Sequence record: NC_049824.1 | DNA from: Escherichia phage vojen | Direction: 5' to 3' (one strand) | DNA length: 50,709 nucleotides | Shown here: piece after piece, positions 283-50,709 of the stretch | Layout of the letters: the number at the start of each line of letters is the position of its first letter | How positions within the stretch are numbered: position 1 is the first letter of the stretch | Notes under the pieces: model-generated | What the model was told of the DNA's origin: nothing | Databases searched by the model: none | Seen by the model: only the letters and a program-made list of their open reading frames with translations | Position numbers and translations under genes: made by a program

Positions 283-294
283 TTTTATTTCTCC

Positions 295-2471: not shown

Positions 2472-2477
2472 GCGGAA

Positions 2478-2739: not shown

Positions 2740-2754
2740 TTATCAGGTGAATAA

Positions 2755-2940
2755 ATGAAAACGAAATTAGTCCATAAATCAGAAATCAAGATCGGCGATA
2801 CTGTGATTCACAACGGTGAGCTTAGAACTGTTGGCAAAGAGTCAATAAGCCACGATGAATTTATGGGGATCTTGTTGTTCGGTGACTCTTATCGTCTTGG
2901 TTATAAAATGGTTGAGCTTGTGGAAGAGGTAAAATTCTAA
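2755..2940 (+). CDS. hypothetical protein (61 aa)
   Basis: ORF; its TAA stop abuts the next motif copy. Confidence 0.5.
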   Translation: MKTKLVHKSEIKIGDTVIHNGELRTVGKESISHDEFMGILLFGDSYRLGYKMVELVEEVKF

Positions 2941-2960
2941 ATAGCACTTTTTGTTAAAAC
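2941..2960 (+). promoter_or_regulatory. Conserved 20-bp element ATAGCACTTTTTGTTAAAAC
   Basis: Exact motif directly after the stop codon; AATAAT at an 18-bp gap. Confidence 0.55.
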
Positions 2961-3038
2961 TCAAAAACGATAACCAGGAATAATAAATCACATAGGGCGG
3001 CACGGCGTCGCCCGCAAAACCAATCAGGAGAAATCACC

Positions 3039-3971
3039 ATGTTAAAACTTGCTGACATTAAATTCCCGATCACCTTCGAATCTCGCGGCGTTGGTCATTT
3101 CATGTTTACCGACGAGAATACATGCACTAAGTTTAACGAATACGGAAGTCCAAACGCTTCAACAATGGAGATTGAACACTTCATTGAAGCGCACAATAAA
3201 CACTACAACTCACTTCGCGACTACGGCTATGCAATGCCAGGATACACCTGTTTTCACTACAAGCCATATAAAGGCCAGGTGTTACCAATGCGCGCACAGG
3301 ACATTGCGAGCGCTGCGACTTATGCGCGGGCAATTCACGCGCCAGAGAATGCAGAGCCACTAGTAAAAATGCACGCCTGCGACTACAAAAAATTGTGGTG
3401 CTTAAGCGTGGATAACATCAAGTATCCGATCGTATTCCGCACGGTTGGTAACTCAACGATTCGCTATACGTCACCAGACAACGGCGTTTATAGCGATGGT
3501 CAGAAATCAGAGTTGAAAGTTGATTTCTTTGTCAACGCTCATAACAAATTCAATCCACACAATGAAGAAGATAAGGTGTACTACGTGGAAGACATTACAA
3601 AACACTTGTTTGGAGAAACACCATTCGGCGGCGGAAAGACGTCAATTCAAGAAATCATTGGCGAGGAGATCCACAAGGCAGCCGTTGAAATGAAAGCGCC
3701 TGGAGGCTGGCGTATTGATAAGAGCGCCTTTGCCAATCAAGAAATCGTAACGCAGGGCGCCATTGAAGATATGCCAGTTGCCGCCACACTAAAAGGCGTT
3801 CAGCTTGATGATGGTATGTGGTTTGAAGTAACGGCAAAGCCAAAGACGATCGAGATTCATGATGATGTTGTTATTCTTCTGCTTCATTACGGTAGCGCAA
3901 AAAACCGTACCGTTGCGGGTGAGATTAGCATCAAGCGCGGAACGATGGTTAAGTGGAAGGTTAAGGTGTAA
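3039..3971 (+). CDS. hypothetical early protein (310 aa)
   Basis: Long ORF with AGGAGA RBS; no motif I can recognise. Confidence 0.65.
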   Translation: MLKLADIKFPITFESRGVGHFMFTDENTCTKFNEYGSPNASTMEIEHFIEAHNKHYNSLRDYGYAMPGYTCFHYKPYKGQVLPMRAQDIASAATYARAIHAPENAEPLVKMHACDYKKLWCLSVDNIKYPIVFRTVGNSTIRYTSPDNGVYSDGQKSELKVDFFVNAHNKFNPHNEEDKVYYVEDITKHLFGETPFGGGKTSIQEIIGEEIHKAAVEMKAPGGWRIDKSAFANQEIVTQGAIEDMPVAATLKGVQLDDGMWFEVTAKPKTIEIHDDVVILLLHYGSAKNRTVAGEISIKRGTMVKWKVKV

Positions 3972-3991
3972 ATAGCACTAATTGTTAAAAC
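3972..3991 (+). promoter_or_regulatory. Conserved element, variant ATAGCACTAATTGTTAAAAC
   Basis: Variant motif; TATAAT (4009-4014) sits inside a GGCC...GGCC dyad at a 17-bp gap. Confidence 0.5.
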
Positions 3992-4044
3992 TCAAATGTG
4001 GGGCCAAGTATAATGGCCTCACTTTCAACGAAGGAGATAAAACG

Positions 4045-4275
4045 ATGTACATTAACAAGAAGATGAAATGCATTTCCGTTAACTATGGTTGCTCTGGCAT
4101 GTTCAAGCCTGGCGAAATCTATATGGCGCAAAAGTTGAAATCATCAACCGGATCTTTTTACGTGAGAAATAGTAAGGGGCATCGCATGTTCCTGAACGGT
4201 GGTGAAGGCACTAAGGTTATGGCACACGCTATGGTAATTGCTGAATTTGAAGAGGTGAAAGATGGAAACAAATAA
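4045..4275 (+). CDS. hypothetical protein (76 aa)
   Basis: Start moved from the ORF-track TTG at 3982 (inside the motif) to ATG with AAGGAG RBS. Confidence 0.5.
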   Translation: MYINKKMKCISVNYGCSGMFKPGEIYMAQKLKSSTGSFYVRNSKGHRMFLNGGEGTKVMAHAMVIAEFEEVKDGNK

Positions 4276-4483
4276 GCGCGTTAAGCACAAGTTTATTGAT
4301 AATCATGGCGACGCGATTGATGTATACAAGTTCGGCGATCGAGTGTTTATTGATGGAACGTTTGAAGGTGGTCGCAGGCCGGATTTTAGGTCGATACTCA
4401 CCGTTGACCAGGTGCGCAAGCTGGCTGATAAGTTAAATGATCTGGCAGATGAAATCGAATACAAGCAAATCCATTTTAATTGA
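4262..4483 (+). CDS. hypothetical protein (73 aa)
   Basis: ORF overlapping the upstream gene end. Confidence 0.5.
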   Translation: METNKRVKHKFIDNHGDAIDVYKFGDRVFIDGTFEGGRRPDFRSILTVDQVRKLADKLNDLADEIEYKQIHFN

Positions 4484-5034
4484 TAGTTTTGATAATGAAA
4501 AAATACGAATTTGAACTTTGGGGAAGCAAATACCATTTTTCCACGAGCAAGCCGATTGTTGTAGTTGACCTTGACGGCACGTTATCCGATGGAACGCATC
4601 GCTTGCACCTGCTGCCGACAGAAGATTTGCACCTTACAGAAAGCTGGTCTGAGTTCAATAAGGCGGCTGTTGGAGATTCGCCGATTAAGAGCACGGTTGC
4701 AGTGGTTAACGGATTGTGGATGTCAGGATTTGCAATCGTTATCCTGACAGGGCGCAGCGATGAGGTGATGGCTGACACCTGCGACTGGTTAAATTATAAC
4801 GGCATCAAGTACGACGCGTTAATCATGCGCCGCAAGGAAGATAATCGAAAAGACACGATCATCAAAGAGGAAGTCTTGCGAGCTATCGGACTGGAAAACA
4901 TTGTGTGCGCTTTTGATGATTCGCCGAACGTGGTTAAGCACTTCCGCAGCCTGGGAATCACAACCTATCAGGTCACGGAATACGACAAGCCACATAATCA
5001 TATCAAATCGCATGGCGTGGAGGAATTGAAATGA
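4480..5034 (+). CDS. HAD-superfamily phosphatase (polynucleotide 3'-phosphatase / nucleotidase-like)
   Basis: VVVDLDGTL motif (HAD motif I, DxDGT) near the N-terminus; later Asp-rich motifs. Confidence 0.6.
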   Translation: MIVLIMKKYEFELWGSKYHFSTSKPIVVVDLDGTLSDGTHRLHLLPTEDLHLTESWSEFNKAAVGDSPIKSTVAVVNGLWMSGFAIVILTGRSDEVMADTCDWLNYNGIKYDALIMRRKEDNRKDTIIKEEVLRAIGLENIVCAFDDSPNVVKHFRSLGITTYQVTEYDKPHNHIKSHGVEELK

Positions 5035-5192
5035 CCTGGTTACTTTTAATCTTTGTCACAAGTTACAATTCCGCCGCTATTGAATCGCAAGAGTTCCACG
5101 GCGAATCAAGATGCCAGGAAGCACGAAAACAAGTTGTTCTCCACATGTCAGATAGTGGGAAAGATGTAACAGCGCTATGCGTTCGTAAATAG
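5031..5192 (+). CDS. small hypothetical protein with hydrophobic N-terminus (53 aa)
   Basis: ATGA overlap with the upstream stop; GGAGGAA RBS; TAG stop lies inside the next motif copy. Confidence 0.3.
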   Translation: MTWLLLIFVTSYNSAAIESQEFHGESRCQEARKQVVLHMSDSGKDVTALCVRK

Positions 5193-5208
5193 CACTTTTT
5201 GCAAAAAC
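5189..5208 (+). promoter_or_regulatory. Conserved element, variant ATAGCACTTTTTGCAAAAAC
   Basis: Variant motif; TATAGT at an 18-bp gap inside a GGGCTT...AAGCCC dyad. Confidence 0.5.
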
Positions 5209-5263
5209 ACATTATCGGGCTTGCGGTATAGTAAGCCCATCGACAACAAGCGAGGATTAAATC

Positions 5264-5527
5264 ATGGTTAATAAAGTTGAGTTTTTCAAAGCGGTGGACG
5301 TTATTGATGGTGCGCCTATCTTCTTTGCTATCCATTCTATTGACGGCGAGGATATTGGGTACAATGTTATCCGTCGAGATGGAATCTCAAAACTTAGCGA
5401 TCTTGTGAGTGTTATTGTGGCAAACGGAAAATGTGTATGGCACGATTCGCCACGAGAGCCGCGCCGCCGCGACATGCAAAATCCAGTTCTGCTTTACACG
5501 CTGGTAATTGAAGGAGTCAACAAATGA
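5264..5527 (+). CDS. hypothetical protein (87 aa)
   Basis: ORF with GAGGA RBS. Confidence 0.55.
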   Translation: MVNKVEFFKAVDVIDGAPIFFAIHSIDGEDIGYNVIRRDGISKLSDLVSVIVANGKCVWHDSPREPRRRDMQNPVLLYTLVIEGVNK

Positions 5528-5709
5528 TTTGGTTACTTGTATTTTTAGTGGTTTTCTTTTATATTTCAGGCTTATTCATCTTCCGCGCGCTGGTGAAAAC
5601 ATGCGATTGCACGGATAAAGATCAGCCTCTTGTTCTGATGTTCTGGTTTGTGTGGTTTTGGGTGGCGCTTTACCAGATTGTACGGGATGAAAGCGGCTTT
5701 AAGTGGTGA
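5524..5709 (+). CDS. small membrane protein (61 aa, two hydrophobic segments)
   Basis: ATGA overlap with upstream gene; hydrophobic stretches LLVFLVVFFYISGLFIF and LVLMFWFVWFWVALY. Confidence 0.5.
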   Translation: MIWLLVFLVVFFYISGLFIFRALVKTCDCTDKDQPLVLMFWFVWFWVALYQIVRDESGFKW

Positions 5710-5903
5710 TTCTTACTATAGCGCATTCATGCAGTGCGCTATGTTTAGATAACAACATGAGATCATGAAGATGCGAAACTTCGAAAAAATCGTATCCAAA
5801 AAGAAGCGATACAGCTACCACGAGCACCAAGAGATGAATCAACGCTATCGCAATAAGCGCCAGCGCAAAGGTAAACATTTCAGTAAACATGGAGAAAATC
5901 AAT

Positions 5904-6494
5904 ATGAAACGCGACATTATCATCCTTAACGGACCGCCAGGGGTTGGCAAAGGCACGCTTGCAGCATACTTAACGGGCCATCGTTACGCAGCCGTTAAAG
6001 CGTCGTTTAAACAGCCTATGTTTGATATTGCATTCTCCATGCTTGGCGTTTACCGATATGACGAATTCATTGATCTGTATAACGACCTCGAGCAGAAAGA
6101 AAAGCCTCAAGCAATCTTGCAAGGCAAGTCGCCTCGCCAGTTCATGATCTGGATTAGCGAAGAAGTTATGAAGCCAGCTTTTGGCGAGCAATATTTCGGA
6201 AATCGCATGGTTGAGCAAGTACACGAGATGTACAGAGATTTAGCTGTTGTAATTAGTGACGGCAGATTCCCTGAAGAAATCAAGCCGCTAGTTAAGGCAG
6301 GCCATGAAGTGCACATTTGCCGACTGCATCGCGAAGGCTTCACGTTTGATGGTGATTCACGAAACTATATTGACCTGAGCGGATACCATCACCGCGTAAA
6401 ACATTACGACTTCACAATGATTGATGGCGATCCAGAAAAGACTGTTGACGAGATCATCAAAACGGTCCAGTGGAAACACATTAAGATCAAATAG
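5904..6494 (+). CDS. P-loop nucleotide/polynucleotide kinase
   Basis: GPPGVGKGT Walker A close to the start; start moved to ATG with GGAG RBS; TAG stop lies inside the next motif copy. Confidence 0.55.
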   Translation: MKRDIIILNGPPGVGKGTLAAYLTGHRYAAVKASFKQPMFDIAFSMLGVYRYDEFIDLYNDLEQKEKPQAILQGKSPRQFMIWISEEVMKPAFGEQYFGNRMVEQVHEMYRDLAVVISDGRFPEEIKPLVKAGHEVHICRLHREGFTFDGDSRNYIDLSGYHHRVKHYDFTMIDGDPEKTVDEIIKTVQWKHIKIK

Positions 6495-6510
6495 CACGAA
6501 TTGCTAAAAG
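6491..6510 (+). promoter_or_regulatory. Conserved element, variant ATAGCACGAATTGCTAAAAG
   Basis: Variant motif overlapping the kinase stop; TATAAT (6529-6534) at an 18-bp gap after an imperfect dyad. Confidence 0.45.
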
Positions 6511-6564
6511 CGGGGCGCAATGCCTCGCTATAATGCAAACACCAATCAAAGAGAGGACTTGAAC

Positions 6565-6969
6565 ATGTTAGAGCTTAACGACATTCGCGTAGGCACAAAA
6601 TTTCGCGTAACCTGGGTATATGATGAGCGATGCGGCATTCGTAAAGGTGAGATTGTAACTGCTTCCGATCGCTATATCGGATCGTTAAAAGAGTTTAACC
6701 GACCACGCATCAAGAATGGCTATATCATTACTCGGCGACTTGGCTTTGATCATTATTGCGTAGTGGCAACTCAAGGCGTTTTGATTGAGCTTAAGCGAAT
6801 CAGCGATCATCGCGGATGCCATGTTAAGACAATGAAAACACCATTTCAGCGAGCGCGATACGATGCGCGACGTATGCGCCGACTTGCGCGTAATGCGATC
6901 AAGTTCAAAAAGCCTGATAATGTTCTTTACGGCATGTACAAGGGGATTGCGCGAAATGCTGGGAAATAA
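6565..6969 (+). CDS. hypothetical protein (134 aa)
   Basis: Start moved to ATG with AGAGAGGA RBS, downstream of the -10-like hexamer. Confidence 0.5.
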   Translation: MLELNDIRVGTKFRVTWVYDERCGIRKGEIVTASDRYIGSLKEFNRPRIKNGYIITRRLGFDHYCVVATQGVLIELKRISDHRGCHVKTMKTPFQRARYDARRMRRLARNAIKFKKPDNVLYGMYKGIARNAGK

Positions 6970-7068
6970 CAACAACGCAACAAATCCAAAGCCGCCATTT
7001 GATTTTCATGAAATCATGATTGTGTTATTCTTGATTCTCTTAGTTATTTATTCAGTGAGGGCCGCACT

Positions 7069-7332
7069 ATGGTTTTTAACGCATTAAAACGAATCTTTAA
7101 ACCTGAATACCGGATCGTTGCTTGCACAGAATGCAAGATTTATTACCTGCAACGCCGCCGCGTTATTAGTGGCGATTGGGAATATCTGACGGATGATGCT
7201 TTCGGCTTTTGGGCTATGGAGTTCAATAGCTACAGTGAAGCGCGTGAGTACGCTAAAAAGTTGCACAAGTTCCGACCTTACAAGCTGCGTTTGCTGGTTG
7301 TTAAAAAATGCGATGTGTGGGATCACGTATGA
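7069..7332 (+). CDS. hypothetical protein (87 aa)
   Basis: ORF with GAGGG RBS. Confidence 0.5.
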   Translation: MVFNALKRIFKPEYRIVACTECKIYYLQRRRVISGDWEYLTDDAFGFWAMEFNSYSEAREYAKKLHKFRPYKLRLLVVKKCDVWDHV

Positions 7333-7508
7333 AAAGAGTAATTATCATTTTTATTGCCCTTATCGCTGGTTGCTACCTGGCTTATAATTATAGCGGCATT
7401 GTTGAGTCAATCGGCGGGTTGATTATCTTCATGGCTGGCGGGTATGCTGGCTATTGTGATGGATTCGAAAACGGAAAGCGTTACATGCTGACCGGAAAAA
7501 AGAAGTAA
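7329..7508 (+). CDS. small membrane protein / possible lipoprotein (59 aa)
   Basis: ATGA overlap with upstream stop; N-terminal hydrophobic segment with lipobox-like LIAGC. Confidence 0.4.
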   Translation: MKRVIIIFIALIAGCYLAYNYSGIVESIGGLIIFMAGGYAGYCDGFENGKRYMLTGKKK

Positions 7509-7551
7509 TGTTAACCGCGCCGCTTAGGTGGCGCTAAAAGGAGGAAACAAA

Positions 7552-7839
7552 ATGGCTAAAAGCAATCGTAAAATGTTGATTAACGCATTCGAAAAGGCAG
7601 CGCTTGAGCGTGGTTGGAATGACTCATTTCACACGGCAAACTGTATCCGACGTTACGGATTCAAGAATTGCCGATCCTGGGCGCGTCAAATGGCTTCATG
7701 GTATGATCTTGATGCGCATTACCTTGATATGGATTGCGCTCTGGTTGAAATGATTGAGCAGGCAGCATTAGAGGATCGACCATTAACGCAATCTGATTTT
7801 GACGATTTTGTGCGCGATGAAATCTATTACATGAGCTAA
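7552..7839 (+). CDS. hypothetical protein (95 aa)
   Basis: Start moved to ATG with AAGGAGG RBS; TAA stop abuts the next motif copy. Confidence 0.55.
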   Translation: MAKSNRKMLINAFEKAALERGWNDSFHTANCIRRYGFKNCRSWARQMASWYDLDAHYLDMDCALVEMIEQAALEDRPLTQSDFDDFVRDEIYYMS

Positions 7840-7858
7840 TAGCACTTTTTGTTAAAAC
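7839..7858 (+). promoter_or_regulatory. Conserved 20-bp element ATAGCACTTTTTGTTAAAAC
   Basis: Exact motif sharing a base with the upstream TAA; TAAAGT-like hexamer at an 18-bp gap. Confidence 0.5.
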
Positions 7859-7914
7859 TTCCGCGAGGGCATTTGTTAAAGTGTCCTCATTGAAGCGAAA
7901 CAGAGGAAATCAAA

Positions 7915-8127
7915 ATGAAAATTCGAATCACCAGGGTTGACATTGACCGCAACGACGGAAGCATTACCCTTGAGCAATGCGGGTTCAAAGTTGGTGACAT
8001 TGTAGAGGTTGACGGATTCTTTCGCGATGGCTCTTACTGCGTGTTAGCAATCCGCAACACAGAAGAAATTCGAATCGGTGATAACATCGGCGTAAATCAT
8101 GACGAATGCGAGGTAGTAGAAGAATGA
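7915..8127 (+). CDS. hypothetical protein (70 aa)
   Basis: ORF with AGAGGAAA RBS. Confidence 0.55.
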   Translation: MKIRITRVDIDRNDGSITLEQCGFKVGDIVEVDGFFRDGSYCVLAIRNTEEIRIGDNIGVNHDECEVVEE

Positions 8128-8375
8128 TCACGATTAACCTTTCAGAAGAACAAGCAAAGAAACTCCTGCATGCTGTAGGTTCTCGTGCACTTTGCGGATC
8201 AACTGATGAAATGATGATTGATCATGATGTTGCAAGAGAGCTTTTTACTCAGCTTGAGCAAAAATTCTCACCACGTCCGACTGACGCGGCAGAAACTGCA
8301 AAATGGCTTGCTGAGAATGGATACACGGCTTTAAAAGTTCACAACTGGAAGCGAAAGCGCAAAAAAGACTGTTGA
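8124..8375 (+). CDS. hypothetical protein (83 aa)
   Basis: Start moved to ATG overlapping the upstream stop. Confidence 0.45.
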   Translation: MITINLSEEQAKKLLHAVGSRALCGSTDEMMIDHDVARELFTQLEQKFSPRPTDAAETAKWLAENGYTALKVHNWKRKRKKDC

Positions 8376-8429
8376 TCGTGTATCTGGTGTTGTTTCTCGC
8401 TGCATTATGGTTGATGTGGAGAAATTAAA

Positions 8430-8741
8430 ATGATTTATATTCACACTTACGGGATCGGGAAATTTGCCAACAAGCAGATCCGAAATATTTACGACACGCT
8501 AGACGATGCGAAAGCACAGCAACGCGTTTTGGGTGGTGTAATTCAGGCTTTTGAGTTAGTGGAAGACATAGAGCGCCGAGAGCATTTGAAAGAGATTATT
8601 GTTGATGAAATTTCATCACTAATCGACGACATGACAAATCACGGGCCTGGTTCTCCGTGGGAAGAAGCCGGATCGACGGAGTGGGATTGCGCTAAAGTTG
8701 CAACGCTTAACAACTTTCGTGAGTTGCTCGACGATTTTTAA
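8430..8741 (+). CDS. acidic hypothetical protein (103 aa)
   Basis: ORF with GGAGA RBS; D/E-rich composition. Confidence 0.55.
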   Translation: MIYIHTYGIGKFANKQIRNIYDTLDDAKAQQRVLGGVIQAFELVEDIERREHLKEIIVDEISSLIDDMTNHGPGSPWEEAGSTEWDCAKVATLNNFRELLDDF

Positions 8742-8750
8742 TTAAAATTG

Positions 8751-8797
8751 AATGCCTCACACAGCGAACAGGGCGCATTTTGACGAGGCATTTTTTA
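8751..8797 (+). terminator. Putative intrinsic terminator (long-loop hairpin + T-run)
   Basis: ATGCCTC...GAGGCAT inverted repeat followed by TTTTTT. Confidence 0.35.
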
Positions 8798-8811
8798 GGT
8801 AAGGTGATTTA

Positions 8812-8940
8812 ATGGATAACTACATAAAACCGTCGCAGTGGCGCGCACAGATGCAAGAGCAAGCATTAGAGCGCGGCGACACTGAAACGGCAATGCACTA
8901 TTTCGAAATGTACAACTTGTGGAAGGATAGGGGTCTGTAA
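8812..8940 (+). CDS. small hypothetical protein (42 aa)
   Basis: Short ORF with AGGTGA RBS; stop overlaps the next start. Confidence 0.3.
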   Translation: MDNYIKPSQWRAQMQEQALERGDTETAMHYFEMYNLWKDRGL

Positions 8941-9170
8941 TGTTTGGAATGAACGAAGCACAATTCAACGCTGCAAAACGCCAGGCTAAGAAGTGCGGCG
9001 AGGCAATGAAGGCGGATGTTGAAAAGCGAGGGAAGTATGTTGATGAAGTCATGAAGGGCATTATTGCCGAACATTATCAGCCAGTTGCGCCAATGCTGAC
9101 AATTACCCAATTCATCTGGTTGTGTGGTTATCTTCGTGGGAGGTGGGGAAACGCATTTGACCGCGAATGA
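8940..9170 (+). CDS. hypothetical protein (76 aa)
   Basis: ORF with TAATG overlap to the upstream small ORF. Confidence 0.5.
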   Translation: MFGMNEAQFNAAKRQAKKCGEAMKADVEKRGKYVDEVMKGIIAEHYQPVAPMLTITQFIWLCGYLRGRWGNAFDRE

Positions 9171-9305
9171 TTGACAACGATTTCCTGATTGGTTAGCATA
9201 TTCAGCGTTTACATAAGAGCGGCATTAGTGCCGAACGGGTGGCGCGGTTGCCACGCAACAACGGCGATATGCAGGTTTTTACCGTAAGACGTATCGCCTT
9301 TTTTT
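9171..9305 (+). ncRNA. Candidate small RNA unit (promoter-like hexamers, structured ~100 nt, terminator)
   Basis: TTGACA, 17-bp spacer, TAGCAT; no ORF; local stems (GTGGC...GCCAC); GGCGATA...TATCGCC hairpin followed by TTTTTTT. Confidence 0.3.
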
Positions 9306-9317
9306 ATAGGTGAATAT

Positions 9318-9551
9318 ATGGAAAAGTACAAATTAACTTTCATGTTTGACAGTATGGTGATGAATCCATTAAATGGTTACGCTTGCAATAGCTTTTCTGT
9401 TACCGTGAATGAGGATGAAATTGATGATGATGGTAAATTTATTCGAATAGGTGATTACATTTATCCTATTCACAATATCAATTGCATCAAGCGCGAGATT
9501 GTTAAAGATGAAGTACAAAGTAAAGCTGACAATCAGACGAATGGGGCGTAA
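9318..9551 (+). CDS. hypothetical protein in AT-rich cassette (77 aa)
   Basis: ORF with AGGTGA RBS; visibly more AT-rich than flanking genes. Confidence 0.5.
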   Translation: MEKYKLTFMFDSMVMNPLNGYACNSFSVTVNEDEIDDDGKFIRIGDYIYPIHNINCIKREIVKDEVQSKADNQTNGA

Positions 9552-9689
9552 TTGCCAGTCATGTAGGCAGGATTTTGAATGCGAGATTTCAGCGCAAAAT
9601 CCTGTTGACGCGATTCAATGTGCTAAAGTTATATCAGGTGCAGATCCAGAGACGCATCAATTTTCAATCAATTTTGTAAGGGAAGTATC

Positions 9690-9923
9690 ATGTTAAACTT
9701 AATTTCTGCTTTTGTTATTGGTTTTGTTCTTGCTGTGATTATTCTGCTTATCGCGTCGGAAAAGATTTGCAAATTTCTTGCTAAGAACGGGAAGTTTGCA
9801 AGCGCGACATGGAATAACAAGATGCAGCGATGGGATGTGCGCGGTCACTATCTGACGATCGGTAGCAAAATCCATCAGCATCTGAAGAATCAAGAAGATG
9901 AAAAAGTAAAATACAAGTGTTGA
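9690..9923 (+). CDS. small membrane protein (77 aa, N-terminal TM helix)
   Basis: N-terminal hydrophobic segment ISAFVIGFVLAVIILLIA; AT-rich. Confidence 0.5.
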   Translation: MLNLISAFVIGFVLAVIILLIASEKICKFLAKNGKFASATWNNKMQRWDVRGHYLTIGSKIHQHLKNQEDEKVKYKC

Positions 9924-9930
9924 ACAACTA

Positions 9931-9955
9931 CCCGCCAAATGGCGGGTTTTTTATT
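9931..9955 (+). terminator. Rho-independent terminator
   Basis: CCCGCC-AAAT-GGCGGG hairpin followed by TTTTTTATT. Confidence 0.8.
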
Positions 9956-10003
9956 GCCTGCAATTTGTCTATAATGATGCTTTGTTATAAAGGAGGGCGC
10001 ATT

Positions 10004-10525
10004 ATGGCTAAAAACGTTGAGCCAGCAGTAAAGGCTTGCAATTTTAAAAAACTATATAATAAGCAATATGGCGATATAGCAAAAATGACAAAGGCGCACA
10101 AGTACACGCCTGAGCAGGTATTTGATCTGGCTGTTCGTTACTTTACTTGGGCTGAGGAAAACCATATACAGGCTGCGGAAACGGCATCCTTTCAGGGTGA
10201 CGTGTACGAAAGCAAGATTCACAAGCCGCGCGTGTTCACCTTAAACGGATTCCGATTATTCGCTGGCCTTTCTGCTTCCGTACTTGAAAAATGGCGACGT
10301 GAGCCAGGATTCAGCGAGGTTATGGACTTTATCGACGGCGTTGTTTACGAGCAAAAATTCCAGCTTGCCGCAAACAATATTGTTAACGCCGGATTCATTG
10401 GTAAGGAGATCGGCATTGAAAAGCCAGCCACCGTTACCATTGAGAATAACACAAGCGCCAGCGTTGACGCTGTAACGGCGGAGGAAGTCAAAGAGGCGGT
10501 AATTGACATTCTGGAGAAGATATAA
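10004..10525 (+). CDS. putative terminase small subunit
   Basis: Position immediately upstream of the large terminase with TAATG overlap; AAGGAGGG RBS; TATAAT at 9970-9975 upstream. Confidence 0.5.
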   Translation: MAKNVEPAVKACNFKKLYNKQYGDIAKMTKAHKYTPEQVFDLAVRYFTWAEENHIQAAETASFQGDVYESKIHKPRVFTLNGFRLFAGLSASVLEKWRREPGFSEVMDFIDGVVYEQKFQLAANNIVNAGFIGKEIGIEKPATVTIENNTSASVDAVTAEEVKEAVIDILEKI

Positions 10526-16345: not shown

Positions 16346-16365
16346 CGTTTAACAAAAAATGCTAT
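16346..16365 (-). promoter_or_regulatory. Conserved element, inverted relative to the downstream plus-strand gene
   Basis: Plus strand reads TTTAACAAAAAATGCTAT; orientation is opposite to the canonical arrangement. Confidence 0.4.
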
Positions 16366-20106: not shown

Positions 20107-20125
20107 TTTTAACAAAAAGTGCTAT
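20107..20125 (-). promoter_or_regulatory. Conserved element, inverted relative to the downstream plus-strand gene
   Basis: Plus strand reads TTTTAACAAAAAGTGCTAT immediately before the RBS of the tail chaperone gene. Confidence 0.45.
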
Positions 20126-31161: not shown

Positions 31162-31189
31162 TTGACTAAACGCATCAAATAGCTACAAT
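31162..31189 (+). promoter_or_regulatory. Sigma70-like promoter for the recombination operon
   Basis: TTGACT (31162-31167), 16-bp spacer, TACAAT (31184-31189), ~30 bp upstream of the exonuclease gene. Confidence 0.5.
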
Positions 31190-32685: not shown

Positions 32686-33342
32686 ATGAAACTATCAGAG
32701 CAATTCGACAAGGTTTTACCAGCACTGCACAAGGCGCGCAGTTTGTTTGTAAAGGTTAAGAAGGATAAACAAAATACACACTTAAAAAACCGTTACGCTA
32801 CACTTGATTCCGTTCTTGATGCAATCACTCCAGCATTGAATGATAACGAGCTAATGTTGATGCAGGATATGATTGAAAGCGAGCAACCCAACCGCATCAA
32901 AGTTGAAACAACAGTTCTGCATGTTTCCGGTCAGTGGGTGAAATTCTATGCTGAATTACCAATAGTTAAAAACGATCCTCAAGGTGTAGGATCTGCATTT
33001 ACATACGCGCGTCGTTATGCAGCCGCCGCAGCATTTGGCTTAAGCCAGGCAGACGATGACGCACAGATTGCCGTTAAATCTGCAAACGACTGGAAGCGTG
33101 ACATTGAGAAATGCGAAAGCGTAAACGAATTGCAAGAAGTGCTTAAATCAGCATGGAAGGCAAGCGATCCGGCAAGCAAGCAGGTAATTAAAGAGCATTA
33201 CGAGAAGCGCAAGGCAGAGCTTGAGATCGGCAAAGCACGAGGATTTAATCCAGCGCAACCAAAGCAAAATCTTGCATCGCCAGAAGTTGACACAAAAAAC
33301 GACGAGCAAGTAAAATCGCAAAGTATCACTGATTTTGAATGA
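32686..33342 (+). CDS. erf: Erf-family single-strand annealing protein
   Basis: N-terminal [18 protein letters not shown] and central [23 protein letters not shown] match the Erf family signature as recalled for P22 Erf. Confidence 0.7.
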
Positions 33343-33385
33343 TTGACAGGGGCGATTGCGCCCCTTTTTTACAGGAGAATAAAAC

Positions 33386-33838
33386 ATGCATATTATTACT
33401 GGTGAGATCCGAAAAGAGCCGCGAGTAAAGCAAATGCCTAACGGCAGCACACTTTATGTGGTTGAACTTTCAGAGCGATACAAAGATAAAGATGGAAACT
33501 GGCAATATACAAACTACAGTTTCTTTTTTAATGCTAAAACAGAAGGTCTTAAGGGTTGGTATGATGAGGCGTTCCAGGTTGGCAAGGTTATTTCTGTATC
33601 TTGCGACACGCTGCGCATTGAAACGCGTGAATATAACGGAAAGATGTATTCAAGTTTAATGCCAGGAGGATTTGCAAATCTTATCTTCAGTCAGCGCGGG
33701 GAAAGCCAGCAACAATATCAGCAGCGAACGCAAGGAGGATGGGGCCAACCACAACAACAGAATCAACCGCAACAACAGCAACAGCCAAGACAAAGCAATC
33801 AACCTCCTATGGACTTTGACGACGACATTCCTTTCTGA
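33386..33838 (+). CDS. ssb: single-stranded DNA-binding protein
   Basis: Gln/Pro-rich linker and acidic C-terminal tail DFDDDIPF typical of SSB. Confidence 0.8.
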   Translation: MHIITGEIRKEPRVKQMPNGSTLYVVELSERYKDKDGNWQYTNYSFFFNAKTEGLKGWYDEAFQVGKVISVSCDTLRIETREYNGKMYSSLMPGGFANLIFSQRGESQQQYQQRTQGGWGQPQQQNQPQQQQQPRQSNQPPMDFDDDIPF

Positions 33839-37968: not shown

Positions 37969-38901
37969 TTAGAGAAGTGATTCAGGCTTGTAAACCTTCC
38001 TCTCTATCCCTTGCCTGTAATTATCATGAATCGGCATCATAATTTCAAGTCCTCTTTCCTCAGCAGCAATGATCGCGTCACGGTCTGTACTCTTACAGAC
38101 AACTCGCATTCTTCTGTTGCCTTTATACCTGTAAGCTACAATCTCAATGTTAGTTGCATCAAAGCAGGCCCAAACCTCTTGACCAGTTGCAAGGTGAATA
38201 TGTTGCGCATCAATCCAGTCAACGCAAAGATAGATCGTCTTATCTGTGCTTCCTGTTCTCACAATCGACCCGCGCGTGTAGTCCTTTGCGAGAAAAGACT
38301 TATTACCTTCTTCATCAATGAAAAGCACATTGCACATTTCATCATCAATTTCATCTGAATGTACCAGGTAACATGGGAGCGCGTGAATGTATCGACCATC
38401 TTTAACGCCGCATTCATAATAACCATCTTCAGGCGGATATATCCCTTCATATGTACTTAACGGGGTGCGATCAAATTTTAGTGTTTTCGACATAACTCGC
38501 TCGCAGCATTCATGGCTTGCCTGCTTCCCAAACGAATAACCAGAATCACGAGATACTCGCTTATTTGCCTTGATCCTATAGTCCTGCGGAACTTTTCCAA
38601 GAAAGCGGCCCAAAATATTGATCACTTCGCTGTAAGGTTCTCCGGTTAGCTTCATGATCCAACCAATTCCAGTATCGTTGCCGCACACGTTGCAGATAGC
38701 GCCGCCATCGCCTTTTTTATCGCCAAGTTTATCCGTCCATCTGAAGCGATCCTTTCCGCCGCAGTGGGGGCAAGATTGATGCTTGCCGTTAAAAACTTCA
38801 TTTGGAAGACCGCAAATACTTTGTAGCGCCTCACGCCACAATCCTTGCATATATGGGAGAACATCTTCTTTTTGATAAACCATAAAGTTTTCGTTATTCA
38901 T
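37969..38901 (-). CDS. DNA primase (zinc-binding domain type)
   Basis: [12 protein letters not shown]...CNVCG zinc-finger arrangement; start moved to ATG with GAGGTG RBS. Confidence 0.55.
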
Positions 38902-38956
38902 ATACACCTCAAACAAAAAAGCCTGACAGATGATAACATCATGCCAGGCATTGTTT

Positions 38957-39430
38957 TTAGCAATTAGTGCTTTCAGGTTTATACAGGAATCCGCCAGGTT
39001 CATAATCTGACATTCTTACCACTCGCAACATTTCACGCTTATCACATCTCTTTGTGAGCGGTTTTCCATTGGAATCAAATCGCAGATCTGGACGGCAGAA
39101 TGAAGCGCGATAGCCTTGACAGCCATACTTTTTGTAATCGTTATGCACCTTTTGAGCGCCAGCGGCTGAAATCATACCGCGAACGCGCCACTGATTTACA
39201 GTTTGCTGGCTAACGTTAAGACGCTTTGCCATTGCTGACACGCTGCCGTAATACTCAATAAGAATGTCAAGCCGTGCTTTTAGTCCGGCGCGCACTTCAT
39301 CTTTTAAAACATAGTATCCTGTAGGGCGCTTGCGCTTTTTCTTATCTTTACCCCGTCGAGTTCCGTTATTGCCATTGATTGTGCGTTTGTCAATCTTACC
39401 AGTTGATACTGCGATTCGCTGTTCTTTCAT
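38957..39430 (-). CDS. putative DNA-binding regulator (basic N-terminus, HTH-like segment)
   Basis: KDKKKRKRP basic stretch; LNVSQQTVNQWR HTH-like segment; GGAGA RBS; start abuts a conserved element in the divergent region. Confidence 0.5.
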   Translation of the reverse strand: MKEQRIAVSTGKIDKRTINGNNGTRRGKDKKKRKRPTGYYVLKDEVRAGLKARLDILIEYYGSVSAMAKRLNVSQQTVNQWRVRGMISAAGAQKVHNDYKKYGCQGYRASFCRPDLRFDSNGKPLTKRCDKREMLRVVRMSDYEPGGFLYKPESTNC

Positions 39431-39444
39431 TATTCATTCTCCAA

Positions 39445-39464
39445 TAGCATTTTTTGTTAAACGA
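39445..39464 (+). promoter_or_regulatory. Conserved element, variant ATAGCATTTTTTGTTAAACG
   Basis: In the divergent region between the HTH gene and helicase; TATTAT at a ~16-bp gap. Confidence 0.5.
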
Positions 39465-39519
39465 TGATTTAATGATTGTGTATTATACACGCCAAATGGC
39501 ATTACTCAAAGGTTTTAGA

Positions 39520-41565
39520 ATGATTCCAAACATTGAAAAGCAAATATCAGCACTTGGTGAAGCGGTAATTAAATCCATTCAGGAGCGATTCACTGTTGGC
39601 GAGATTGTGCCTTACCCTTACCAGTGCGTTGCATACGCTGAGATCGCAAAGCGTATGAAAAATTATGAGCATCCATTCTTTGTTAAAGCGTCCGTATCGG
39701 CTGGCAAAACATTGATGTTTGCAATGGTTGCTCACCAGTGCCGGAAAATGGGCTTGAAAATGATGGTACTTGCTCGCCAGGCTGAGATTGTGGATCAGGA
39801 TTCTGAAGAGATAACAAATCTTGGTGTGCCGAACTCCATCTATTGTGCAGGACTGAAGACAAAAAGCGCATACTTTCCGATCGTTGTTGGTTCTGAGGGA
39901 ACTGTAGTTAATGGACTGTTTAAAGCGCTTGGCGACTATGTTCCGCACGTTATCGGGATCGACGAGTGTCACCAGGTGGATTGGGAAGACCTTGCCGACG
40001 CAATAGAGAAAGACGAGTCATTTTTACAAATGACAACTAAGAAAGGCGAAAAAGTACCAAATCCAGATTATGACATAACAAAGGGAAGCAGGAACAGAAA
40101 TACAGAGTTCCTGATTGGTGAGGATGGCTTGCCAATGGAGGGAACAGGCCGCACACAATACACTGTCATTATCATGGAAATGATGCGCCGCTGCCGGAAA
40201 ACATATGGTCATGAACTGCGCATATTTGGCATGACTGGATCGGAGTTTCGCGGCGTAGTCCCGATCCTGGTGGAAGACAAAAAACAGAAAGGATTCTGGC
40301 GTGAACAGGTTACTAATATTGACACCAACTACCTGATCAAATTCGGTTCTGTTGTGCCAACAAATTTTGGCGACGTTGGCGATCTAGGGTATGACCTTTC
40401 AGAGTTTGAGGCATCCAGTGAGGATGGCGTTGCAGACTTTGACGCTAAAACGCTTCGCAGGATGGAACAAAAAATTCATGAAGAAGCGACCATGACAAAG
40501 CGCATCATGGCGAAAGTTCACGAGATCTGTAAAAACCGCAACGGCGTACTTGTGACATGTGCAGGAGAAAGGCATTGCAAAGAGGCAGCGGCAGCGTTGC
40601 CACCTGGAACGACTTACAGGATAATTACTGGTAAGACTGGCGACAATCAGCGCAAGGAGTGGTTAAGGGAAGCATACGAAGGGAAAGTAAAATACATCTT
40701 CCAGGTTCAGGCGCTAACAACTGGCGTTAACGTGCCGTTTTGGGATACGTCGGTTATATTGCGTAAGATTGGATCTCTTACGTTGCTGATTCAGCTTTTA
40801 GGACGCGGAATGCGACTTCTTAAGAAATGGCATAAGGAGCAAGGCTTCAAGAAAGATGATCACCTGGTTATGGATTTTTCAGGAACGATGGACGAGTTAG
40901 GTGAGCTTTATTTTGATCCGATACTTGAACAGGCGCAGCATCAGAAGCGATTCAGGAACGGTAAAGATCCGAAGCCTTGTCCTGTTTGTGGAACTCTTAA
41001 CAGCTATTATGCTCGTCGTTGTATGCACGTAGACGAAAACGGCAACAGATGCGAGTGGTTCTTTAAATTCAGGACATGTGATGATCAGATTGACCCACGC
41101 ACTAAAAAGATTATTCAGCGCGGCTGTGGAACTAAAAATGATATTGCGGCCAGGGTATGCAGACATTGCGACATGTCATTGATTGACCCTAACGAGAAGT
41201 TAAGCGGAAAGCACTACACAAAAAACGACTGGTTTCAGGTGCAATCTTTCTCGGTTGACATGACGAAAAACCAGAAAGGGATAATATTTAATTATGAGCT
41301 TTCCGATGGCATAGACACTTTCAGAGCGCGTGAAATATTTTTCCCTGAATCAGAAAGCCAAATTTGTCGCGCAAAATGGAGAAATGTTGCTCTTAAGCAC
41401 ATACCGGATCGCCGTATTGCTGGCATGGTGGCGAGCTATCGTAATGCACGTAAAATCATGCAATATGTGAATCACATCATGCCGCCATCGCGTGTTACTC
41501 ACAGAAAGACTAGCAAGAGTGAAGATAATTTGTACAAGAAGGACTTTAATTATGGCAATGACTGA
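39520..41565 (+). CDS. SF2 DNA helicase with C-terminal zinc-ribbon motifs
   Basis: Walker A SAGKT; DExH-like GIDECHQ; C-terminal CPVCG...RRC and CGTKN...CRHC; start moved from in-motif TTG to ATG. Confidence 0.65.
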   Translation: MIPNIEKQISALGEAVIKSIQERFTVGEIVPYPYQCVAYAEIAKRMKNYEHPFFVKASVSAGKTLMFAMVAHQCRKMGLKMMVLARQAEIVDQDSEEITNLGVPNSIYCAGLKTKSAYFPIVVGSEGTVVNGLFKALGDYVPHVIGIDECHQVDWEDLADAIEKDESFLQMTTKKGEKVPNPDYDITKGSRNRNTEFLIGEDGLPMEGTGRTQYTVIIMEMMRRCRKTYGHELRIFGMTGSEFRGVVPILVEDKKQKGFWREQVTNIDTNYLIKFGSVVPTNFGDVGDLGYDLSEFEASSEDGVADFDAKTLRRMEQKIHEEATMTKRIMAKVHEICKNRNGVLVTCAGERHCKEAAAALPPGTTYRIITGKTGDNQRKEWLREAYEGKVKYIFQVQALTTGVNVPFWDTSVILRKIGSLTLLIQLLGRGMRLLKKWHKEQGFKKDDHLVMDFSGTMDELGELYFDPILEQAQHQKRFRNGKDPKPCPVCGTLNSYYARRCMHVDENGNRCEWFFKFRTCDDQIDPRTKKIIQRGCGTKNDIAARVCRHCDMSLIDPNEKLSGKHYTKNDWFQVQSFSVDMTKNQKGIIFNYELSDGIDTFRAREIFFPESESQICRAKWRNVALKHIPDRRIAGMVASYRNARKIMQYVNHIMPPSRVTHRKTSKSEDNLYKKDFNYGND

Positions 41566-43572: not shown

Positions 43573-44688
43573 ATGAAGCAAATCAAAATCACAGATGAAC
43601 AATTTATCAATGAGCGCAAGCAGGGAAAGACATATAAGCAGATCGCTAATGAGTATGGTATGAACGTTCGCAGCATTGAGCGACGCGCGGCACGATTAGC
43701 AAAGCAAGGTAAAGTTACAACCATCGGATCACCTGGTTTTGGTGTTACTGGAGAATCAAAGCTAATTGATAAAGATGGCAATGTGGTTATGACATGGATT
43801 AAGACAAGTAAGGACCGCGAACAGTTAGAAGCATTAATGCAGGCCGCTATGGATGCATTTAGCGAAGAAGTTCCTCGACTTGATCCACAGCCAGAATCAC
43901 AAAAGGATTATAGCGAGACGTTATCACTGTATCCGATCTTTGACATGCACTTGGGAGCAATGGCGCATAAGCATGAATGCGGCGAGAATTGGGATACAGC
44001 AACAGCAGAGCGCGTAATGAATAATTTCATTGATTATTCCATCCAGTGCGCGCCGGATAGTGAAAAGGCTGTTTTACTGATTGGTGGTGACATGCTTCAC
44101 AGCGACGGACTGGAGGCGGTGACACCTGCAAGCGGTCACGTATTGGATCAAGATAGTCGATATGCAAAACTTGTTTATGTTGCCATCCGGTCAGTGCGTC
44201 GAGCAATTACAAAGCTGTTATCAAAACACAAAAACGTCGAGATTCAGATCATTGAAGGCAACCACGACCAAAGCGGCATGATCTGGTTGCGCGCAGCAAT
44301 GGCGGCAGCATATGAGAATGAGCCGCGAGTGCATGTTGATGTTTCTCCGCGAGTAGTTCATCACACACAGTATGGCAAAACATTCCTGGCATACCATCAC
44401 GGGCACACTATCCGCAAGCCTGAAACATTGCTCATGATGTGCGCGGCAGACTGGCGCGAAGACTTCGGCAATTCAAAAATGATGTATGCTCACGTAGGGC
44501 ATTGGCATCATCAAACAGTAACCGAAACAAGCCTGGGAATTGTTGAAGTGCATAGCACTATGGCGGCAAAAGATGCATATGCGGCGCGCGGTGGATGGCG
44601 TTCTCGCCGCCGTGCGGCTGTTATTGTTTATGATAAAGAATACGGAGAAGTGGGGCGATTTATGCATTATCCAGAAATGGCTGGTTGA
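43573..44688 (+). CDS. metallophosphoesterase with N-terminal HTH-like segment
   Basis: Calcineurin-like motifs DMH, GGDMLH, GNHD and HWHH; N-terminal TYKQIANEYGMNVRSIERRAARL; AAGGAG RBS. Confidence 0.55.
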   Translation: MKQIKITDEQFINERKQGKTYKQIANEYGMNVRSIERRAARLAKQGKVTTIGSPGFGVTGESKLIDKDGNVVMTWIKTSKDREQLEALMQAAMDAFSEEVPRLDPQPESQKDYSETLSLYPIFDMHLGAMAHKHECGENWDTATAERVMNNFIDYSIQCAPDSEKAVLLIGGDMLHSDGLEAVTPASGHVLDQDSRYAKLVYVAIRSVRRAITKLLSKHKNVEIQIIEGNHDQSGMIWLRAAMAAAYENEPRVHVDVSPRVVHHTQYGKTFLAYHHGHTIRKPETLLMMCAADWREDFGNSKMMYAHVGHWHHQTVTETSLGIVEVHSTMAAKDAYAARGGWRSRRRAAVIVYDKEYGEVGRFMHYPEMAG

Positions 44689-49507: not shown

Positions 49508-49732
49508 TCAAAACGGAAAGCATCGCGGGCAGTTAGGATCAAAATTGCAGCCGCAATCATTGACAATCATAGTTGGATCTGCAAATGCAGCGCCGCATTC
49601 ATGATCCATATCCATTTCACCCAGCGCATCATCAAGCGTCCTGATCTTATATGCAACTTCAAGCGCTGTCTCTTTATTTAATCCGGCATCTTCAGCCATT
49701 TGCAGGCGCTCAAAAAATCCGTCCTGACTCAT
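49508..49732 (-). CDS. small Cys-rich protein (74 aa)
   Basis: Start moved to ATG with AAGGAG RBS; C-terminal CGC...CPRC cluster. Confidence 0.45.
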   Translation of the reverse strand: MSQDGFFERLQMAEDAGLNKETALEVAYKIRTLDDALGEMDMDHECGAAFADPTMIVNDCGCNFDPNCPRCFPF

Positions 49733-49861
49733 TTCATAAACTCCTTGATAGCAAACAGAATAATAGCAAGACCAGCAGTGACAACCCAAAGACCAATAAG
49801 GCCAATCATCACTCCCAATAAAATATCAAGAAATTTCATCATTATTATCACCTTTATTTAA

Positions 49862-49886
49862 AGGGAGGCGAAAACCTCCCGTTTAT
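49862..49886. terminator. Intrinsic terminator-like hairpin
   Basis: GGGAGG-CGAAAA-CCTCCC hairpin with T-rich flanks, downstream of gene 49890..50117. Confidence 0.55.
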
Positions 49887-49889
49887 TAA

Positions 49890-50117
49890 TTAGACAGCCT
49901 TCCAGCTTTCAATGAACATGCTGTTCTCTTCAAGAAGTTTAATCAATTCTTCGCGTGTATATTTGCGGATTTTACTACCAGGATGCGAGCCAACAACAAA
50001 CACACCTTTACCGCTTGTGATTGTTAACTGGTTGATTCCGCAAGATTTATCCATTTTTACGGCGACGCGGTGATGAGCGTCAATAGTTGCCATAATGTTT
50101 AAAACTTTTGCTTTCAT
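49890..50117 (-). CDS. hypothetical protein (75 aa)
   Basis: ORF on minus strand. Confidence 0.5.
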   Translation of the reverse strand: MKAKVLNIMATIDAHHRVAVKMDKSCGINQLTITSGKGVFVVGSHPGSKIRKYTREELIKLLEENSMFIESWKAV

Positions 50118-50690: not shown

Positions 50691-50709
50691 GTTTTAACAA
50701 AAAGTGCTA
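50691..50709 (-). promoter_or_regulatory. Conserved element, truncated at window end
   Basis: Plus strand reads GTTTTAACAAAAAGTGCTA, preceded by GATGCGC...GCGCATC dyad enclosing an ATAAT-like hexamer. Confidence 0.5.

Follow-up and report, generated by a model that had tools for sequence, protein, structure and literature searches.

Candidate mar/sox/rob-type class II boxes in the T1-like Escherichia phage vojen and the Cro-fold protein encoded between two of them

A recurrent, probable promoter motif of the mar/sox/rob type

The 50,709-bp genome of Escherichia phage vojen (NC_049824.1, analyzed over its full length and called the window below) is a complete T1-like phage genome of the family Drexlerviridae, genus Hanrivervirus, that contains 17 copies of a recurrent motif, one of them between the divergent genes for a small basic protein, here denoted gp157, and a helicase. 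In sequence, in orientation and in the distance to the −10 hexamer, the copies match the mar/sox/rob box of Escherichia coli in its class II, micF-type arrangement, and they appear to form a regulon of about 17 class II promoters for early, replication, recombination and methylase genes. An earlier note on this DNA had proposed gp157 as the factor that recognizes the motif family or as a regulator of the replication genes. The entire analysis was performed in silico, and the transcription starts, termination and binding discussed here are all predicted.

A search with the consensus of the host box derived by chromatin immunoprecipitation (ChIP), GCAHWWWWTGYYAAA (PMC6900184), identifies 15 exact matches in the genome where 0.07 are expected. 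The marbox consensus AYnGCACnnWnnRYYAAAY (PMC3709825) yields 17 matches with at most one mismatch, compared to the expectation of 1.7, and the consensus of the phage copies, ATAGCACnnnTTGnTAAAA(c), fits it. The copy pointed out in the earlier note, TAGCATTTTTTGTTAAACGA at 39445–39464, indeed lies near the start of gp157 (14 bp from the ATG at 39430) and belongs to a family far above chance: the motif has 7 matches with three or fewer mismatches against 0.01 expected. The robbox of E. coli micF, ACAGCACTGAATGTCAAAAC, is identical to the phage copy at 3972 in 16 of 20 positions, as counted by eye. The site of an unrelated protein would have a negligible chance of fitting so specific a consensus (about 22 bits) with the correct orientation and register; the boxes, therefore, almost certainly evolved as sites for a protein of the MarA/SoxS/Rob class.

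The position of the boxes relative to the adjacent promoter elements is equally constrained. A −10-like hexamer is found 18–19 nt past the 19-mer in 15 of 20 copies (background 4.3%, P = 4e-17), so that the gap between the 20-bp box and the hexamer is 17–18 bp and the box overlaps the −35 position; the copies lack a usable −35 hexamer at 16–18 bp. The distance from the G of GCAC to the −10 hexamer is 34–35 nt in the phage and 35 nt in micF of the K-12 genome. In the Rob and SoxS activation complexes described in the cryo-electron microscopy papers, the center of the box is at −41.5, the bases −47G and −45A are contacted, and region 4 of sigma is displaced from the −35 element. The conservation of the phage box is asymmetric, with C7, T11 and A17–19 lacking symmetric partners; the box also contains a partial dyad, TAGCA-N5-TGyTA.

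The boxes point at the downstream gene, about 70–85 nt from its ATG, and precede the small early genes of both arms as well as the genes for the helicase, Dam, the primase and a second helicase, a gene of the recombination region and a cor-like gene; the late structural and lysis genes have no boxes ahead of them. The repeats as such have been published but not explained. The 2024 paper on phage TLS (PMC11447400) describes 21-nt intergenic repeats, aaATAGCACnnnTTGnTAAAA, that are oriented along the direction of transcription about 76 nt before start codons and occur in T1 and Rtp too, and lists their function as an open question.

Other readings of the motif were considered and rejected. Sigma-54 promoters have the form TGGCAC-N5-TTGCW, with GG and GC exactly 10 bp apart and no −10 element; the phage sequence, TAGCAC-N3-TTG, has AG instead of GG, its spacing is 2 bp short, and a sigma-70 −10 hexamer follows the box at a fixed distance. 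The MotA box of phage T4 is centered at −30, 11–13 bp from the −10 hexamer, whereas the vojen box ends 18–19 nt from it. If TTGTTA were taken as a −35 hexamer, the spacer would be 21–22 bp.

Two features of the boxes are recorded here as side observations. A significant GC-rich hairpin (z ≤ −2) that either fills the spacer to the −10 hexamer or encloses this hexamer in its loop is predicted at 11 of the 17 box promoters (those listed are at 2478, 3972, 5189, 6491, 7839, 32281, 41967, 42987, 48121 and 48797), and only the hairpin of the primase copy is followed by a U-run. These hairpins could act as weak terminators, mark the 3′ end or a processing site of the RNA from the cassette upstream, or function at the level of the DNA. 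Furthermore, two near-consensus boxes, at 16347–16365 and 20107–20125 on the minus strand, are antisense to late genes and have no good −10 hexamer downstream; one is located just upstream of the major capsid gene and the other between the major tail and chaperone genes. Both are conserved in phage JakobBernoulli (6362 and 10121) and one in Vibrio phage Vc1 (5730). These copies may be antisense promoters, roadblocks or decoy sites.

The locus between primase and helicase

Genes were assigned in the window by mapping the JakobBernoulli proteins onto it, and the locus was compared across clades using 80 IMG/VR loci that represent all clades, TLS included. The region of gp157 is 97–99.9% identical to many coliphage records, in which the three genes are annotated as primase, 'transcriptional regulator' and helicase. 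The coding sequences and the predicted elements on the helicase side are as follows.

37969..38901, minus strand: primase coding sequence (Zn_Ribbon_Prim); open reading frame (ORF), Pfam/PHROG matches and gene map
38957..39430, minus strand: gp157 coding sequence, Cro-like helix-turn-helix (HTH) protein of 157 aa (PHROG 2856; orthologue of bas07_0038)
39444..39463, plus strand: box H, the mar/sox/rob-type 20-mer ATAGCATTTTTTGTTAAACG of the helicase promoter; motif scans
39481..39486, plus strand: TATTAT, −10 hexamer of P_hel (helicase promoter), 18 nt past the 19-mer box; motif scan and clade comparison
39482..39487, minus strand: −10 hexamer TATAAT of the gp157 promoter (P_reg); promoter search and clade comparison
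39504..39509, minus strand: −35 hexamer TTGAGT of P_reg; promoter search
39520..41565, plus strand: helicase coding sequence (superfamily 2, ResIII/Helicase_C); ORF, Pfam/PHROG matches and gene map

The true start of the primase is the ATG at 38901 and not the in-frame upstream ATG at 39003.

Box H is located 76 nt 5′ of the helicase ATG, in the orientation and at the spacing seen for the other copies, and therefore belongs to the helicase promoter. Despite its proximity to the gp157 start, to which the earlier note had drawn attention, it would thus be an activator box for the divergent gene and not primarily an operator of gp157. The predicted promoter of gp157 itself, TTGAGT-16-TATAAT, which the earlier note does not mention, has a sigma-70 score of 10/12 and is placed and oriented for this gene. 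The two promoters are interlocked, in that the same 7 bp, TATTATA, provide the −10 hexamer of P_hel on the plus strand and, as the complement, that of P_reg on the minus strand. The predicted starts diverge and are about 18 bp apart; box H occupies about +14 to +32 of the predicted P_reg transcript, and the −35 hexamer of P_reg lies within the helicase leader.

The arrangement recurs in all clades, with the order ATG, ribosome-binding site, box, 18–19 nt and TATTATA or TATGATA. On the gp157 strand, again in all clades, a TTGxxx or TTTAAC hexamer is found 16–17 nt 5′ of TATAAT when the sequences are read by eye, as in the P_reg of the Klebsiella-phage clade, TTGTCA-16-TATAAT. The minus-strand TATAAT seems to be under selection, because TATTATA persists at this locus whereas other boxes are followed by CATAAT or TATAAT. 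The shared region would hold one polymerase at a time and, given the shared −10 hexamer and the location of box H inside the P_reg leader, an occupied helicase promoter would exclude P_reg. According to this scheme, gp157 would be made early from a monocistronic transcript that runs from P_reg, a sigma-70 promoter independent of an activator, to an intrinsic terminator, and its synthesis would be inverse to box-dependent transcription.

Two palindromes were examined as possible gp157 operators. GTGTAT-T-ATACAC, which spans the shared −10 hexamer, is conserved no further than TATTATA and was rejected. The palindrome AAATGGCATT at 39495–39504, which lies just past the shared hexamer, in the helicase leader and the P_reg spacer, is common to clades with differing recognition helices and is an unlikely operator.

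At the other end of gp157, a second box, unnoticed in the earlier note, is embedded in the coding sequence itself.

38954..38973, minus strand: box P, the second mar/sox/rob-type box, AAAGCACTAATTGCTAAAAA, of the primase promoter; motif scans and clade comparison
38930..38935, minus strand: TATCAT, predicted −10 hexamer of the primase promoter, in the hairpin loop region 19 nt past box P
38921..38949, minus strand: stem-loop, predicted intrinsic terminator for gp157; RNA folding
38915..38920, minus strand: U/T-run of the terminator (U6); sequence

Box P covers the last five codons of gp157 (E-S-T-N-C) and the stop codon. The C-terminal tail (E/D)-S-T-(N/D)-C-stop, encoded by AGC ACT AAT TGC TAA, is the box itself, and the tail seems to be kept in proteins of differing length because its codons are box P. 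Between the gp157 stop (38957) and the primase ATG (38901), the RNA is predicted to fold into a hairpin of −24 kcal/mol (z −3.5). All 16 clade representatives that were folded have hairpins at this position (−15.7 to −23.2 kcal/mol, z −2.5 to −6.4), with clade-specific stems, followed by a T-run, a ribosome-binding site and the primase ATG; in the −10 hexamer within the loop, A2 and T6 are invariant among 17 clade representatives. Single-sequence folds were used for this comparison since RNAalifold, applied to the MAFFT alignment of the terminators, returned no structure, the stems being out of register.

The earlier note had described an attenuator-like hairpin ahead of the primase gene. The hairpin and its T-run are there, but an attenuator is not the function to which they point: the sequence is best compatible with an intrinsic terminator of the gp157 transcript interleaved with the box-dependent primase promoter, whose −10 hexamer lies in the loop. 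Transcripts that read through from P_reg would halt at this terminator. In contrast, primase transcripts, with a start about 7 nt past the −10 hexamer and so already within the 3′ arm, would not form the hairpin.

The gp157 protein

The description of gp157 as a basic HTH protein of 157 aa encoded divergently from the helicase is borne out by the ORF at 38957–39430 on the minus strand (the helicase starts at 39520): the protein has an isoelectric point of 10.2, with 36 lysines and arginines versus 15 aspartates and glutamates, and an HTH at residues 55–89. It matches PHROG 2856, 'transcriptional regulator', with an E-value of 3e-78. The HTH region scores just below the Pfam gathering cut-offs, with 29.8 bits for YdaS_toxin (cut-off 30.0) and 25.2 bits for P22_Cro (cut-off 30.2), and the precomputed Pfam tags of close homologues name both families. 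Two parts of the protein are delineated by conservation.

39167..39247, minus strand: helix-turn-helix, codons 62–88, with the recognition helix SQQTVNQWRV, which differs among clades; conservation
39326..39397, minus strand: near-invariant N-terminal arm DKRxxNGNNGTxRGxDxxxRK, codons 12–35, predicted to be disordered; conservation and AlphaFold2

The AlphaFold2 model (mean predicted local distance difference test score, pLDDT, 85.7) consists of a basic, disordered segment (residues 1–34) and a confidently modeled part (residues 40–145) that includes a Cro-type five-helix core with the HTH and a C-terminal extension. Its best structural matches are the Cro proteins of Xfaso1, P22 and N15, and the AraC fold is absent among them. 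To judge from the model, gp157 is an HTH DNA-binding protein with the Cro fold of the all-alpha subgroup, not the AraC fold. Compared to the all-alpha Cro proteins (Xfaso1 Cro, 3bd1; P22; N15), it has an additional basic, near-invariant, disordered N-terminal arm of 38 residues and an additional conserved C-terminal extension of 50 residues, and its Pfam scores fall just under the cut-offs.

Homologues of gp157 are confined to T1-like phages, in which they are found in 841 phage records and form 118 protein clusters, and the gene order primase, gp157, helicase is constant in all loci compared; gp157 belongs to the core of their replication module. Apart from the N-terminal arm, the near-invariant segments are RGMIS, C-terminal of the recognition helix, and GYRASFCRPDLRFDxNGKP. 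The recognition helix shows the opposite behavior. Residues Q75, N79 and Q80, which we align with the base-contacting residues of lambda Cro, are among the most variable positions of the protein (entropies 2.8, 2.0 and 1.4 bits). Clades with the helices SQQTVNQW, SIQVVQQW, TRQAVEEW, NLKTVWGW and CCVRLTNAY (in Vc1; CCVRLTNAYR in longer form) all keep the same box. A protein that reads about 17 invariant sites should retain the residues with which it does so, and the variable recognition helix is the main argument against reading of the box by the HTH of gp157. The claim that gp157 recognizes the motif family is not supported by this pattern, nor by the identity of the motif with the host mar/sox/rob box. 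Most likely, the DNA specificity of gp157 is either clade-specific or not sequence-specific. The clade comparison revealed no operator that co-varies with the recognition helix and no iterons near the gene.

Candidate readers of the box

The most probable reader is a host AraC-family monomer, namely Rob, MarA or SoxS, and we consider the chances even that the physiological activator at the boxes is of this kind. Such a monomer would recruit the sigma-70 RNA polymerase to the box. Rob is constitutive and abundant in the cell, and MarA and SoxS, or RamA in Klebsiella, appear under stress. RamA of Klebsiella uses the same box according to PMC8811837. Even with a phage factor as the true activator, the sites should still attract host MarA, SoxS and Rob. 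A phage gene of this class was not found with tblastn and a small hidden Markov model (MarA, SoxS and the N-domain of Rob) in all six frames, and Pfam scans of 53 phage ORFs did not detect HTH_18 or HTH_AraC. Of the hits rejected in this search, the best MarA/SoxS/Rob-like one, at 49697–49900 on the plus strand, is antisense to real genes, and a MarA-like hit in the ORF at 1752–2222 belongs to a DUF7174 protein with a winged-helix-like, not an AraC, fold. No literature that links the T1-like repeats or gp157 to Rob, MarA, SoxS or marboxes was found, within an incomplete coverage of the literature; a preprint on phage sensing in which Drexlerviridae are named proved unrelated.

Several considerations weigh against a host reader. 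No report was found of T1-like phages depending on rob, marA or soxS, and the classical T1-resistant mutants are receptor mutants; basal promoter activity or the redundancy of the three host factors could mask such a dependence. Most cellular Rob is generally regarded as inactive and sequestered, and the binding and activation by these proteins, like the start sites, are predictions from sequence. The strict pattern of box plus −10 hexamer was found in the IMG/VR scan in T1-like contigs only, with no second phage family, and gp157 and the box have the same phyletic range. Moreover, gp157 is among the few genes with an activator-independent promoter, as would be the case for a cascade regulator; its near-invariant N-terminal arm and C-terminal segment may touch a conserved partner, perhaps the box itself, and the partial dyad could be used by a Cro-type dimer. 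Finally, Vibrio phage Vc1, which was scanned and carries the same boxes, and Pseudomonas phage Motto, another member of the family, have recorded hosts outside Enterobacterales. These records are possibly unreliable and could either count against an enterobacterial host factor or reflect wrong host assignments.

A possibility that we regard as distinctly unlikely is that gp157 itself is the reader, acting as an early Cro/cI-like dimer on TAGCA-N5-TGyTA near −41 and activating the approximately 17 promoters in the class II mode, like lambda cI at PRM; by switching on P_hel, it would shut its own overlapping promoter and so be subject to negative autoregulation. No other gene product of vojen is as clear an HTH regulator and, like the box, gp157 belongs to the core of the family; both gp157 and the box architecture are limited to T1-like phages, its canonical promoter is box-independent, its gene is flanked by two boxes, its N-terminal arm and C-terminal segment are invariant, and the center of the box suits a dimeric class II activator. 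However, the base-contact positions of its recognition helix are among the least conserved while the box is invariant over the same clades, the strong asymmetry of the box is that expected for a monomer with two HTHs, the fold is that of Cro and not of AraC, and the 15/15 match to the host marbox together with the identical spacing would have to be due to coincidence or convergence. The same exact marbox identity would be left unexplained if another phage protein were the reader, which seems quite improbable. The best candidate for that role is the immediate-early DUF7174/phrog_4841 protein (1752–2222, plus strand), whose gene follows the strongest canonical promoter of the genome (TTGACA-18-GATAAT, 1691–1720). 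Its AlphaFold2 model (pLDDT 82) combines an N-domain of winged-helix-like H-S-H-H-S-S topology with a helical hairpin; the helix SYIRxxxxRVPEV is invariant, Y48, R50 and R55 in the putative recognition helix are invariant or nearly so among homologues that are 25–45% identical, and BLASTP detects a weak similarity to residues 39–102 of MarA. That similarity is gapped and marginal, though, and tblastn finds the protein in only 131 phage records, few of them from Klebsiella phages, compared to 841 for gp157. The gene has also been swapped between near-identical phages, because its product is only 25% identical to its positional counterpart in JakobBernoulli, a phage that is otherwise 95–100% identical. 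Highly improbable, in our estimate, is a box that works without an activator, either as an UP-like element combined with a weak −35 hexamer, TTAAAA, at a spacer of 18–19 bp, or as a stoperator or roadblock. TTAAAA matches TTGACA in 4 of 6 positions, two copies are antisense in the late region with no good −10 hexamer, and both stoperators and UP elements are named as options in the TLS paper (PMC11447400). A 4/6 hexamer with a spacer of this length is nevertheless poor, the invariant half ATAGCAC at about −50 to −44 contains G and C and is not UP-like, no repressor is known in a virulent phage, and the fixed distance to the −10 hexamer (P = 4e-17) argues for a promoter function.

As for gp157, it is most likely a Cro-type regulator or an accessory factor of the replication module; the candidate roles are regulation of the P_reg/P_hel pair or other early promoters, or that of an accessory protein of the origin or the replisome. 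The suggestion of the earlier note that it regulates the replication genes is in part retained: gp157 is an HTH protein and a core component of the replication module with a promoter interlocked with that of the helicase, but the motif is probably not what it reads. A more specific variant, unlikely but compatible with reading of the boxes by host factors, is that gp157 is an origin-binding or initiator-accessory protein of the primase-helicase module, the variable HTH reading a clade-specific origin and the conserved arms contacting the conserved primase, helicase or host replisome. The fixed gene order in all loci is in line with this proposal, as is the combination of a variable DNA-reading helix with invariant flanks, which resembles the lambdoid O proteins; besides, T1-like phages have no known origin or initiator. 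On the other hand, the search near the gene revealed neither iterons nor clade-specific repeats, and the small Cro fold is not that of a known initiator. GC skew, which was tried as a pointer to the origin, merely follows the direction of transcription and mirrors gene orientation.

Comparison with known regulatory systems

The closest parallel to the vojen promoters is with the micF-type class II promoters regulated by MarA, SoxS and Rob in E. coli. Both have the asymmetric 20-bp box (GCAC ... YAAA) in forward orientation, the gap of 17–18 bp to the −10 hexamer, a box center near −41.5 and a weak or absent −35 hexamer. The host boxes are degenerate and scattered, whereas the phage has about 17 near-consensus copies that would drive most of the early and middle genes; in addition, a GC hairpin is present at many of the phage copies, either within the spacer or surrounding the −10 hexamer, and binding of the host factors is in this case predicted.

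Other phage systems are similar in some respects. In lambda, Cro and cI control the divergent promoters PR and PRM, with cI acting as a class II activator at −42. As in lambda, the vojen locus has a gene for a Cro-fold protein at compact divergent promoters with predicted mutually exclusive use and an activator site near −42. Unlike in lambda, a single stretch of 7 bp serves as both −10 hexamers, one on each strand, and tripartite palindromic operators are lacking; vojen is virulent, and the recognition helix of gp157 does not track the conserved site. The systems of T4 MotA/AsiA, Mu Mor/C and P2 Ogr similarly involve phage promoters that have only a −10 hexamer and in which a conserved upstream box replaces the −35 element. 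The MotA box is centered at −30 and the vojen box at −41, and the latter equals the site of a host factor; Pfam scans of the phage ORFs detected no homologues of MotA, AsiA, Mor or Ogr. The stoperators of mycobacteriophage L5, a comparison drawn by the authors of the TLS paper, are likewise numerous asymmetric intergenic repeats oriented with transcription. Those sites belong to a temperate phage, whose repressor binds them and so stops elongation; the vojen repeats, in contrast, are found at a fixed distance from the −10 hexamer in a virulent phage.

Implications

The fold class of gp157 is a known one, and the protein already carries an annotation. To this and to the published repeats, the present analysis adds the marbox identity and the class II geometry of the repeats, the −10 hexamer shared by P_reg and P_hel, the box in the C-terminal codons of gp157, the module of a promoter inside a terminator with its structural covariation, and the contrast between the variable recognition helix and the invariant box. 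The wider proposal, to which we give slightly less than an even chance, is that T1-like phages run nearly the whole of their early and replication program from about 17 class II marboxes read by host Rob, MarA or SoxS (or RamA). If so, the expression of the phage would be wired to the host regulators of the response to xenobiotics, bile and oxidative stress, and replicating phage DNA would titrate Rob, MarA and SoxS away from the host regulon. gp157 would be a counter-regulated partner, with its promoter shut when the helicase box is occupied, and the boxes nested with terminators would define insulated single-gene cassettes.

Since the sequencing of the T1 and TLS genomes, the 21-nt repeats between genes of T1-like phages have been on record, and the question of their function was still open in 2024 (PMC11447400); the identification as boxes of the class II mar/sox/rob type makes this question experimentally simple. 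Should host factors read the boxes, a large family of virulent enterobacterial phages, which includes many candidates for therapy against Klebsiella and E. coli, would depend on, or sense, the multidrug and stress regulators, and phage productivity would be linked to bile, salicylate, oxidants and resistance mutations such as marR or ramR. For the protein annotated as 'transcriptional regulator', the analysis also changes the questions to be put to experiment, and the promoter and terminator architecture that it documents is unusually compact.

Other features of the genome

The ends of the window, 1–14 and 50696–50709, overlap by 14 nt within a copy of the motif (AACAAAAAGTGCTA); therefore, the window is a circularly closed assembly of the complete genome. 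A stretch of about 600 bp of non-coding DNA (1155–1750) separates the divergent early arms and contains an AT-rich block and TG-rich repeats (about 1470–1560), and its 3′ end is the canonical promoter at 1691–1720 mentioned above as the strongest of the genome. Candidate functions of this stretch are those of origin, pac site or control region. Canonical sigma-70-like promoters are also present at 31162–31189, 33287–33316 and 33368–33396 on the plus strand, upstream of the genes for exoVIII and the single-stranded DNA-binding protein. Genome-wide, such sites are not more common than in shuffled sequence, and they are depleted in the region 1–10100 (9 compared to 19.7 expected).

About 20 GenBank records (MG0656xx, 'Campylobacter phage', host Campylobacter jejuni) are 97–98.5% identical to vojen over the region analyzed and probably represent T1-like contaminants or mis-assigned hosts; a similar doubt applies to the host records of Vibrio phage Vc1 and Pseudomonas phage Motto. 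The 371-aa protein encoded at 43573–44685 on the plus strand, which is annotated elsewhere as a phosphoesterase, has a weak N-terminal match to HTH_28 (E 0.003) and is possibly a further DNA-binding protein. One of the small early ORFs matches the Pfam family PF25180, 'Phage antiviral trigger protein Gp54', with an E-value of 3e-38.

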